Below, piece by piece: positions 21,140-22,465 of a stretch of DNA of 38,441 bases (the first letter of the stretch is position 1; each line of letters begins with the position of its first letter). This stretch comes from a virus. Lineage: Duplodnaviria; Heunggongvirae; Uroviricota; Caudoviricetes. The position numbers and the translations under genes were made by a program. The stretch is taken from IMG/VR virus record IMGVR_UViG_2802429225_000008. One strand, written 5' to 3'. The notes under the pieces are model-generated. The model did no database searches and was not told where the DNA came from. It worked only from the letters and a program-made list of their open reading frames with translations.

Positions 21140-21584
21140 ACTGCAGAAGGTGGACGACTGGCTGAGTGCTTTGCTGGCGAATCTGGAACCAGCCGCAAGA
21201 AGCCGAATGATGCGCCAGCTGGCGCAGGAACTGCGCCGGACACAGCAGCAGAATATCAGGATGCAGCGCAATCCAGATGGCAGCAGTTATGAACCGCGCA
21301 GGGTAACAGCACGCAGCAAGAAGGGGCGCATCAAACGTCAGATGTTTGCAAAGCTGCGCACCACCAAATACCTGAAAACCGCCGCCAGCGCCGACTCTGC
21401 CAGCGTGCAGTTTGAAGGTAAGGTGCAGCGCATTGCGCGGGTTCACCATTACGGCCTGCGTGATCGCGTCAGTCGCAAAGGACCGGAGATCCGTTACGCA
21501 GAGCGCAAATTGTTGGGTTTCAGTTCAGTTTCAATAAACGTAGTCCATGATATTATATATTCGTGGATATCCAATTTAGATTGA
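21132..21584 (+). CDS. S: Tail completion protein (P2 gpS family)
   Basis: 150 aa, same size as P2 S; the 3' end runs into AT-rich DNA. Confidence 0.8.
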   Translation: MAELQKVDDWLSALLANLEPAARSRMMRQLAQELRRTQQQNIRMQRNPDGSSYEPRRVTARSKKGRIKRQMFAKLRTTKYLKTAASADSASVQFEGKVQRIARVHHYGLRDRVSRKGPEIRYAERKLLGFSSVSINVVHDIIYSWISNLD

Positions 21585-21594
21585 AAGTTTGAAA

Positions 21595-21618
21595 TGGCAG
21601 ATGCTCTGCCATTTTTTT
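21595..21618 (+). terminator. Rho-independent terminator (tggcaga-tgc-tctgcca-ttttttt) between convergent genes
   Basis: 7-bp perfect stem plus a T7 run between the S stop and the stop of the minus-strand moron. Confidence 0.6.
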
Positions 21619-21620
21619 AT

Positions 21621-22373
21621 TTAGATACTGAGATTTTTTTTACATAATAGTATAAATTCACAGTACATGTTATAGATTTTAGTCGCACATCCGTTAGCTT
21701 TTTTTATGGTTTCTATCTTTTCAGGGGGGAGGCTCAATAAGGCAATCTCTCTGTCGCTGAGCATTGAAATAAACTCGCTGCTGCCTAAATACCCGGAGTT
21801 GCAGGCTAAAAAATAATTAAAGTTAGTTAACTCTTTGTGTAGTTCGTTAGATTTTATTTCTATTTCATTATCATGAAAATGATGTATGGCCTTTCCCCAT
21901 TCATGGCAGTATGTTGTCATGTCTTTAAGGTTTGAGTCATGAAATCTATTGCCAAAGTCATGGCTTTTTAGAAAGTCTATTGAGTTTGAATCTGGTGGTA
22001 ATAATTTTATAAACTCTTTATATAGATTAATGTCAGAGTTCCTTTGTCTTTCTTTCTTTTCTCTGTTTTCTTTAATTTTAATACTGTCAAAGAACCATTC
22101 TGGCACTTTACTTAATAAGTTATAGGTTAACCCCAAAGCAATTAGAGTGATGGCTACCATCGTGCTTGGATTACCATTATCTATTTTTATTATATCAATA
22201 TCTGCATTGAATTTTTTATTATATATATCAATTATAAAATTAAGTGCCATGAGATAATATGGAATTGGTAGCGCAATTATGCTTAGCCCAGTTATAACTA
22301 AAGCCCAAGTTATTTTATTACTAAACTCAGGAAATATTACATTGATTATTTTTTTAACAATATACTTTTTCAT
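21621..22373 (-). CDS. AT-rich moron: membrane-anchored protein of unknown function (250 aa, two N-terminal TM helices)
   Basis: Markedly AT-rich and opposite in orientation to the late operon; N-terminal hydrophobic segments (ITWALVITGLSIIALPIPYYLMALNFII and MVAITLIALGLTYNLL) followed by a soluble His-rich domain; occupies the variable orf30 position between S and V. Confidence 0.65.
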   Translation of the reverse strand: MKKYIVKKIINVIFPEFSNKITWALVITGLSIIALPIPYYLMALNFIIDIYNKKFNADIDIIKIDNGNPSTMVAITLIALGLTYNLLSKVPEWFFDSIKIKENREKKERQRNSDINLYKEFIKLLPPDSNSIDFLKSHDFGNRFHDSNLKDMTTYCHEWGKAIHHFHDNEIEIKSNELHKELTNFNYFLACNSGYLGSSEFISMLSDREIALLSLPPEKIETIKKANGCATKIYNMYCEFILLCKKNLSI

Positions 22374-22401
22374 TACTTAACTCCCTGAAAAATATCCTAA
22401 T

Positions 22402-22419
22402 TGTGCCATGATTCATACA
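22402..22419 (+). promoter_or_regulatory. Ogr-type late promoter element (TGT-N12-ACA) upstream of V
   Basis: tgtgccatgattcataca about 47 nt upstream of the V start. Confidence 0.5.
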
Positions 22420-22465
22420 TTTTTATCTACTGGTTGATAATGTGTGGGGGATTTATGTTAGTGAC

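Follow-up and report, generated by a model that had tools for sequence, protein, structure and literature searches.

Why does a P2-like prophage carry, between two of its tail genes, a gene of low G+C (GC) content that is read against the direction of its late operon, and what might the encoded membrane protein do? The question is raised by a window of 38,441 nucleotides, the whole stretch of DNA that we analysed (IMG/VR virus record IMGVR_UViG_2802429225_000008), which is a complete-looking P2-like prophage, identical to IMG/VR record UViG_2802429224_000012. A reading made from the sequence alone had pointed to this gene between S and V, with its 250 amino acids (aa), its strikingly low GC content and its orientation opposite to the late operon, and had named it a candidate for superinfection exclusion or abortive infection; the open reading frame (ORF) call and the GC profile agree with the description. 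The cargo gene, as we call it here, was acquired horizontally and lies in a slot of the prophage whose cargo is exchanged recurrently, and the two halves of its product are independently mobile modules. We favour a single-protein abortive-infection defence, in which a cytosolic sensor would be coupled to a membrane-disrupting effector, and give this reading a probability of about 0.45. The slot contains the following features.

21132..21584, plus strand: gene S (tail completion / virion morphogenesis; Pfam Phage_tail_S on the orthologue), its tail from 21507 on being cassette-specific
21507..22465, no strand: exchangeable low-GC cassette of 959 bp (blastn breakpoints and GC trough)
21591..21615, plus strand: hairpin and T-run terminator, closing the O-to-S late transcript (terminator scan)
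21621..22373, minus strand: cargo gene, ATG start, 250 aa (ORF call)
21624..22061, minus strand: C-terminal helical domain, residues ~105-250 (AlphaFold2, hhalign, conservation), the proposed sensor/regulatory module
22074..22373, minus strand: N-terminal membrane module, residues 1-100 (hydropathy, conservation, AlphaFold2), the proposed effector
22381..22386, minus strand: Shine-Dalgarno sequence AGGGAG, 7 nt ahead of the cargo ATG at 22373 (read from the sequence)
22402..22419, plus strand: TGT-N12-ACA dyad, Ogr-type activator site of the pV late promoter (pattern search)
22467..23044, plus strand: gene V (baseplate spike; Pfam Phage_base_V on the 192-aa orthologue)

The composition of the cargo gene sets it apart from its neighbours, with a GC content of 0.304 (GC3, at third codon positions, 0.31) against 0.54 (GC3 0.60) for S and 0.57 (GC3 0.64) for V. 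The window as a whole has a GC content of 0.49 and the flanks of ~0.55, and in a 300-nt sliding profile of the window a trough of 0.28-0.34 is confined to ~21450-22500. Comparison with a 76%-identical homologue gave a ratio of nonsynonymous to synonymous substitution rates (dN/dS) of 0.18 at a dS of 0.75. Because of this ratio, the Shine-Dalgarno sequence and an N-terminus that is conserved in homologues down to 20% identity, the cargo gene is a real gene under purifying selection.

The slot is the position of orf30 in P2, as the sequence-only reading had proposed. The P2 reference record has the same layout, with S, a rho-independent terminator, a reverse-strand Orf30 annotated as 'nonessential', the pV activator site and V in this order. 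The cargo protein itself showed no homology to P2 Orf30 (NP_046770.1; BLASTP E > 1, hhalign probability 0.1%). A terminator between S and the cargo gene had been placed at 21595-21618; it exists, and was found at 21591-21615. It also lies 6 nt past the stop codon of the reverse-strand cargo gene, with a weaker T-tract in that direction. The late promoter of V was likewise correctly placed beside the gene, since the dyad at 22402-22419 occupies the same relative position as the pV activator site annotated in P2, and this site is nearly identical in the cassette of a 50%-identical homologue (alignment with L004, KP12 and Cartapus; L numbers denote the loci of this analysis). Gene V is the first gene of the V operon and forms the right anchor of the slot; its start is most likely the ATG at 22467 rather than the GTG at 22442.

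The ends of the exchanged unit were located by blastn against five comparators, namely the empty-site phages KP12 and 500465-1 and prophages carrying other cargo. On the left, homology ends at 21481-21522, inside the last ~25 codons of S, and on the right it restarts invariably at 22466, one base ahead of the ATG of V. The mobile unit 21507-22465 therefore consists of its own C-terminal tail of S, the terminator, the cargo gene and its own pV activator site. Thus, the AT-rich block that had been recognised between the terminator and V is present, and its left edge lies further out, at 21507, inside the 3´ end of S. Inverted repeats, target-site duplications, attC sites and signatures of transposons or integrases were not found at the cassette ends, and the cassette would be exchanged by homologous recombination in S and V.

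The tail of S (21507-21584) differs with each cargo type, being AT-richer yet homologous, for example FSSVSINVVHDIIYSWISNLD, VNDDVEAMTRDMILQWLAG and INEEVETLTQDILLMWISRK (L001, L032, L033, L034). An essential structural gene has therefore been chimerised repeatedly through cargo exchange. On two IMG/VR contigs that carry the 76% homologue (L029, L030), the proteins S, W, J and I share 95-98% identity with those of the window, against only 66% for V; the recombination tract that brings this variant therefore reaches into V.

Comparison of the S-V interval revealed the variable distribution expected of cargo. In Klebsiella phage KP12 and Escherichia phage 500465-1, whose sequences match the flanks with 95-96% identity, the slot is empty and just 68 nt separate S from V; relatives as close as 96% thus lack the gene. 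In phage Cartapus, the slot holds a different reverse-strand ORF of 176 aa. The slot backbone is present in 1054 of the 5426 complete E. coli genomes. In a census of 60 evenly spaced E. coli records, 52 matched both flanks and 8 the V side only; the slot was empty in 30 of the 52 and filled in 22. The cargo family accounted for two of the filled slots, DUF6216 for seven, DUF2971, TIR_2 and a Sll1717-family P-loop ATPase for one each, FRG for two and assorted hypothetical proteins for the remaining eight, so that at least 10 unrelated low-GC single genes use the slot in the sampled E. coli records. The family of the window gene is rare, being present in 20 of the 5426 complete genomes, and every copy is located in the S-V slot.

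Five other cargoes were extracted (TIR_2, DUF6216, DUF2971, a hypothetical protein of E. coli W and that of Cartapus). Together with P2 Orf30, the other S-V cargoes share the order of S, terminator, cargo, pV activator site and V and mostly the reverse orientation; they are non-essential single genes of 176-307 aa, and the GC content of the five is 0.32-0.37. Neither P2 Orf30 nor the other cargoes tested have sequence or profile similarity to the window protein, and the hidden Markov model (HMM) comparison of the five with the window family was negative. The TIR_2 cargo (266 aa; L032, 1195-1995, plus strand; E. coli MEI3A-1023) is encoded on the strand of the late operon, unlike most cargoes, and its C-terminal part is unrelated to the window family.

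P2-like phages are documented carriers of defence hotspots (PMC9122126; 10.64898/2026.02.27.708500). Systematic work on them has centred on gpA-gpQ (old/tin) and Z/fun (PMC9122126; 10.1101/2024.10.15.618418): the analysis of Rousset et al. 2022 dealt with gpA-gpQ only (PMC9122126), and the hotspots reported with iLund4u are old/tin, Z/fun and tail-CI (10.1101/2024.10.15.618418). A preprint of 2026 refers to defence loci 'within the late genes' but gives no detail, and our literature search on orf30, DUF6216 or the RefSeq accessions found no functional study. The P2 loci old, tin, Z/fun and the gpA-gpQ hotspot resemble the S-V slot in holding AT-rich non-essential cargo at a fixed place, with rapid exchange between near-identical phages. 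The S-V slot differs from them in being a separate slot that has not been mined systematically, and the window protein is unrelated to their cargo.

What does the cargo gene encode? A word-indexed protein search retrieved just three homologues, of 100, 76 and 50% identity, each from a P2-like prophage that carries it between S and V, and the same kind of search with an alignment of the C-terminal domain (C-domain) added none; tblastn against phage and plasmid collections gave no match. An exhaustive profile search with an HMM detected 465 cluster representatives at E <= 1e-3, 80 of them at E <= 1e-10. Pfam (to E up to 10), NCBIfam and PHROGs had no match to the window protein, and with PADLOC included no curated family matches, in agreement with the earlier view that the protein could not be assigned to a family. 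No TIR, cNMP-binding, SAVED or other known ligand-binding domain was found in it with Pfam.

The architectures of 134 classified representatives show how the two halves are combined. The full architecture is present in 48 of them, and in 47 the C-domain stands behind one or two short transmembrane (TM) segments. It follows a short soluble N-terminus in 17, a soluble domain of at least 110 aa in 10 and a long N-terminus with TM in 2, and it is the only part present in 10. A Pfam scan of 88 relatives that share the C-domain only (alignment A4) identified N-terminal fusions to a CAP12/Pycsar-type TIR domain (4 proteins, best E 7.8e-20), TIR_2 (2, best E 1.4e-18), Schlafen/AlbA_2 (1, E 9e-17) and HNH (1). 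When the family profile was compared by hhalign with two of the TIR fusions and the Schlafen fusion, the match covered the entire C-domain with every motif in common (99.7%, E ~1e-26). PADLOC models (ThsB-like, PycTIR, PDC-S35/S50/S66) match only the TIR or Schlafen parts of the fusions; the shared C-domain is therefore not in the PADLOC library. The Schlafen fusion adjoins HigBA as well as an MNT-like gene (NTP_transf_2) whose small partner ORF is unannotated.

The N-terminal module is shuffled in the same way, being located on at least three unrelated C-terminal domains (hhalign 99.7-99.8%, columns 3-104 only). Proteins with the FPDFxNKLTW two-segment module and other C-domains of ~100-150 aa include P0132, P0140, P0075, P0122 and P0101, suggesting a broader set of TM-effector proteins with different sensors. 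The protein family and both modules are undescribed in the libraries searched, and the kind of element, single-gene defence cargo of prophage hotspots and integrons, is already known.

Two N-terminal TM helices had been proposed for the window protein, and the Kyte-Doolittle profile indeed has two hydrophobic segments (residues ~21-50 and 72-90). The N-terminal module consists of an amphipathic K-rich helix, the motif FPEFSNKITW and these two segments. In the alignment of 48 full-length members, the more distant of which have 20-39% identity, the order is FP(D/E)FxNK(L/I)TW, two hydrophobic segments, a charged linker and the C-domain. P15, D114 and F166 are invariant, and nearly invariant residues include W159 and N227. 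The C-domain carries the motifs D..LF..F..LPSxS, HDFG (variable), W..AE..F.D.ELE and N..A...Y..HQ.F.

The motif HEWGKAIHHFHDNE that the sequence-only reading had pointed to is present at residues 158-171, and its interpretation was not borne out. The C-terminal domain had been called rich in His, Asp and Glu; with H at 2.8%, D at 5.2% and E at 6.4% it is not notably so. A functional, metal-binding-like site is not supported: the histidines are not conserved among the 48 members, in which only W159 and F166 of the motif are kept. An HD-type metal site ('HDFG', 'HFHD') was considered and rejected, as the residues vary (HDLG, QHFG, NNFN) and only D114 and F166 are invariant; HEPN was rejected as well, since the H of the C-terminal 'HQ' is replaced by Y in the window protein and no Rx4-6H motif is present.

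AlphaFold2 run on the 48-sequence alignment produced a model with a mean predicted local distance difference test score (pLDDT) of 91.1 and a predicted template modelling score (pTM) of 0.72, with pLDDT of 94-99 over residues 100-250; a run from only 3 sequences (pLDDT 43) was unusable. The model predicts an N-terminal helix (residues 2-13), helices 20-34 and 39-55 parted by a proline kink, and a 54-residue helix (71-124) in which the second hydrophobic segment would run into the C-terminal bundle. The C-terminal four-helix domain is modelled as a helical bundle with a small beta element, and no specific structural relative of the model was found. Lysine and arginine residues number 5 in the N-tail, 3 in the loop and 7 after the second TM segment. 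Because of this distribution and the cytosolic nature of the fused enzymes, the C-domain is probably cytoplasmic.

The distant members were found in a setting very different from a phage. We retrieved 15 reference-genome loci with a tighter subfamily alignment; the 48-sequence alignment lacked a conserved stretch. The hosts are Pseudoalteromonas, Marinomonas, Halomonas, Aeromonas, Photobacterium, Bowmanella, Stutzerimonas, Pseudomonas and Pararhizobium, the full-length members are 27-29% identical to the window protein, and none of the 15 loci has a P2-like prophage context. In Pseudomonas sp. G34 (L026), the gene is flanked by two copies of a ~80-nt repeat that occurs in 21 copies between small co-oriented ORFs and has the cores RYYYAAC and GTTRRRY. 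We built an attC covariance model on the bottom strand with a hand-given structure, a top-strand model having caught the central stem only. The model has 20 base pairs, 94.7% of cells paired and covariation above all 500 shuffles, and it matches at least 22 sites in L026 and 14 in the Stutzerimonas locus (L023), where the gene is the first cassette beside a divergent tyrosine recombinase (SAM_4 and Phage_integrase). L019 has one matching site, directly upstream of the gene, and the sites matched in the Marinomonas loci are weaker.

Three further loci (L014, L016, L017) have a common 72-nt imperfect palindrome (attC) directly 3´ of the stop codon, with a bottom-strand folding free energy (dG) of ~-16 to -17 kcal/mol and z ~-4 in L014 and L016. 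A GTTAGCA junction stands at the start in 8 of the 11 loci examined, and most of them end in the complementary TGCTAAC; this pair is the signature of a circularisable cassette. The distant members are thus integron gene cassettes (L026, L023, L019, L014, L016, L017). At the window gene, the covariance model detected no attC, and end repeats are absent; this copy is not an integron cassette by these features.

A 300-nt stretch just upstream of the family cassette in L026 (3000-3299) is duplicated with 100% identity 6.6 kb off (9606-9905), which suggests a recent cassette duplication within the array. One distant locus among L012-L026 carries aGPT-Pplase3 and ADDT (amino-acid:DNA transferase), phage-typical enzymes of thymidine hypermodification, which suggests that a further mobile element is located close to a member of the family. 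When 137 neighbouring ORFs were annotated, the genes within 6 kb of distant members proved to include two Septu systems (PtuB E 2e-66), GajA/AriA/Old-like ATPases, HNH nucleases and a C5 methylase. Experiments have established integron cassettes as a source of phage defences that consist of a single gene (10.1101/2024.07.02.601719; 10.64898/2026.03.17.712381), and TM helices described as 'compatible with direct interference' are present in about one third of the validated ones (10.1101/2024.07.02.601719).

How might such a protein act? In the abortive-infection reading, the cytoplasmic four-helix domain would be the sensing or regulatory module and the N-terminal module, with its amphipathic helix, its FPEFSNKITW motif and its two hydrophobic segments, the effector. 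A phage-derived cue would change the conformation or the oligomeric state of the sensor; the membrane module would then compromise the inner membrane, halting the infected cell while the cycle of the incoming phage is still incomplete. This would protect the resident prophage as well as the population of lysogens. The TM module would fill the role that TIR, Schlafen or HNH hold in the paralogous architectures. The roles of sensor and effector, the membrane damage, the defence phenotype and expression from the lysogen are all inferred.

The defence reading is strengthened by a C-domain that is common to the TIR, Schlafen and HNH fusions, by halves that are both swappable and by distant members that are integron cassettes. 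The position in a cargo hotspot that also holds a TIR_2 protein, the defence-type genes near distant members, the probable topology and the purifying selection speak for it as well. Shuffling in both directions with TIR, Schlafen and HNH resembles the pattern of conflict systems, in which a constant sensor would be joined to interchangeable toxic effectors. The architectures of Pycsar, CBASS, Thoeris and Avs are the basis of this sensor-effector comparison, which is meant as an analogy and not as a claim of membership. The closest likeness is to the Pycsar effectors PycTM and PycTIR and to the TM effectors of CBASS, in that a constant C-terminal module is combined with an N-terminal TM part or a CAP12/Pycsar-type TIR domain; the TM module is therefore suggested to be the effector equivalent of TIR. 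In contrast to Pycsar and CBASS, the window protein has no nucleotide-binding sensor, its cassette contains no cyclase or partner gene, and the C-domain of the family is a helical bundle without known relative.

The BRiCs of Kieffer et al. (10.1101/2024.07.02.601719), such as the TM-only BrcWGS21, are comparable in another respect, as the distant members are likewise single-gene, promoterless attC cassettes, and many of the validated BRiCs are small TM proteins without known domains (10.1101/2024.07.02.601719). The family motif was not found in one supplementary file of that study (10.1101/2024.07.02.601719), and no tested BRiC is known as a homologue. Unlike the BRiCs, the copy in E. coli lacks an attC and would be exchanged inside the phage by homologous recombination.

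Several observations weigh against the defence reading. The search of PADLOC-DB 2.0 with the window protein returned noise only (RT-DnaG-like, E 0.037), and no family member has a PADLOC match over the shared domains. The TIR, Schlafen and HNH fusions are a minority of the architectures, and among the 10 soluble-domain fusions a known domain was recognised in only 7. Prolines break up the first hydrophobic segment, which is partly amphipathic in other subfamilies, and the topology is therefore uncertain. Ordinary housekeeping genes are also located near distant members, and non-defence functions are also common in integron cassettes and phage morons. Upstream of the cargo gene no sigma-70 promoter scoring at least 9/12 was found; the best candidate (TAGATA-18-CACAAT with an upstream TG, 8/12) overlaps the pV activator dyad. 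Finally, frameshifts disrupt two of the seven complete-genome E. coli alleles inspected and the copy on an IMG/VR contig (L028).

The common E. coli allele, WP_000833215.1, is intact in NGF1, FDAARGOS_1251, MS20659 and VG38-53E1, and the window allele differs from it by two residues (K3R and G228R); the 76% variant is WP_029487415.1. Neither accession was mentioned in the literature found by our search. The copy of strain 1105 (L009) has a 1-nt deletion at window position 22304 and a frameshift after codon 23, because of which the RefSeq product of this strain is a 228-aa protein starting from an internal TTG. Contig L028 shares this frameshift, and TUM13773 (L045) has a separate one near codon 217. 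A widespread frameshift in E. coli copies, considered on account of matches of 960 versus 961 nt, was rejected, as the disruption is limited to strain 1105, L028 and TUM13773. The frameshifted alleles could reflect a cost of the gene or its dispensability. The prophage of strain 1105 also has pseudogenised tail-fibre genes.

The alternative that survives best is an accessory membrane protein without a part in defence, which would modify the envelope, confer stress tolerance, take part in signalling or bring no current benefit. Morons and integron cassettes serve many kinds of function, the fold is tied to no mechanism, the Z/fun slot of the same prophage holds an Acyl_transf_3 gene that is not obviously defence, and some alleles are frameshifted. 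Against this stand the varied partners of both modules (TIR, Schlafen, HNH and other domains), a combinatorial pattern that is the hallmark of conflict systems, the TIR, DUF2971 and FRG proteins carried in the same slot and the Septu and Gabija-like genes near distant members. We regard an accessory role outside defence as unlikely.

Superinfection exclusion, one of the two functions originally suggested, would mean that an incoming phage is held up at DNA entry or at an early membrane step by the inner-membrane protein while the cell stays alive, with the C-domain serving as a membrane-proximal binding module. A small prophage-encoded inner-membrane protein in a non-essential slot would suit this role, other cargoes of the slot are membrane proteins as well (DUF6216, the E. 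coli W hypothetical protein), and so are the third or so of validated integron defence cassettes with TM helices (10.1101/2024.07.02.601719). The same C-domain is, however, fused to cytosolic TIR, Schlafen and HNH enzymes, which are unable to block entry; the family is spread widely among unrelated marine bacteria in the form of integron cassettes, without a cognate phage context, and PHROGs, its superinfection-exclusion families included, gave no match. The evidence thus makes abortive infection more likely than superinfection exclusion, which we consider quite improbable.

A selfish addiction or toxin-like element would be a membrane toxin that stabilises the cassette or the prophage, like the toxin-antitoxin (TA) cassettes of integron arrays, with no anti-phage role. 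TA systems are common in chromosomal integrons and are located near the Schlafen fusion, the N-terminal module is predicted to be membrane-active, and occasional inactivating frameshifts fit a costly toxin. This is nevertheless very doubtful, as the 959-bp cassette holds no partner or antitoxin ORF, no non-coding RNA was found, the intact allele is stably carried in most genomes inspected, and the gene is a single-gene cassette in integrons. Finally, a holin-like or tail-associated accessory of lysis or virion assembly, which the late region, the lysis genes 1 kb upstream and the adjacent tail genes might bring to mind, is effectively excluded because 96%-identical functional phages lack the gene, and it is further opposed by the orientation opposite to the late operon and the foreign GC content, the P2 slot occupant annotated as non-essential, the missing match to any holin or structural family (Pfam, PHROGs) and the homologues outside phages.

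Returning to abortive infection, a wider proposition can be put forward tentatively, and we would not rely on it: the C-domain may be a new phage-sensing domain that is combined with at least four kinds of effector (the two-segment TM module, short TM anchors, TIR, and Schlafen or HNH) in a widespread single-protein abortive-infection family. This family would travel in integron cassettes of marine and environmental Proteobacteria and as exchanged cargo in the late operon of enterobacterial P2-like phages, and the S-V slot would be a third defence hotspot of P2.

The other cargo slots of the prophage are occupied too. The old/tin slot (9506-12774, plus strand), between a replication gene (6092-8506) and the portal gene (12813-13865, minus strand), contains three low-GC ORFs (GC 0.35-0.42). 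One encodes an AAA ATPase of 360 aa (Pfam AAA E 5e-30), another a 374-aa protein without annotation and the third a 344-aa protein that matches only the C-terminal half of Peptidase_S8; together they may represent ATPase and subtilase defence-type cargo. The Z/fun slot, between a tail-fibre assembly gene and the sheath gene FI, contains the Acyl_transf_3 membrane acyltransferase mentioned above (403 aa; 26817-28028, minus strand; E 1.6e-27; GC ~0.31), which resembles O-antigen acetylases of prophages (serotype conversion or receptor masking). With old/tin, Z/fun and S-V occupied, none of the three classical P2 cargo slots is empty here.

Just outside the right prophage end, the small RNA RybB (Rfam RF00110, 106 bits) is encoded at 35662-35740 (minus strand), beside a 561-aa ORF at 35820-37505 (minus strand). 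A near-identical prophage in E. coli strain 1105 adjoins ybjL, and the ORF is probably ybjL, as in that strain. Since RybB and this putative ybjL adjoin the prophage end, the attachment site is probably located in the rybB/ybjL neighbourhood.

If the cargo gene is a defence gene, it would contribute a new sensor domain and a new membrane effector module, neither of which is present in Pfam or PADLOC. The S-V (orf30) slot, which about one fifth of the complete E. coli genomes possess and which is used by at least 10 unrelated AT-rich genes, would then be worth mining, and the family would link two reservoirs that are usually studied apart, integron cassettes and prophage hotspots. The gene is present in the model gut strains NC101 and NGF1 and could influence phage susceptibility there. 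The versions with TM, TIR, Schlafen and HNH parts constitute a natural set of chimeras for the study of how one sensor might drive different effectors.

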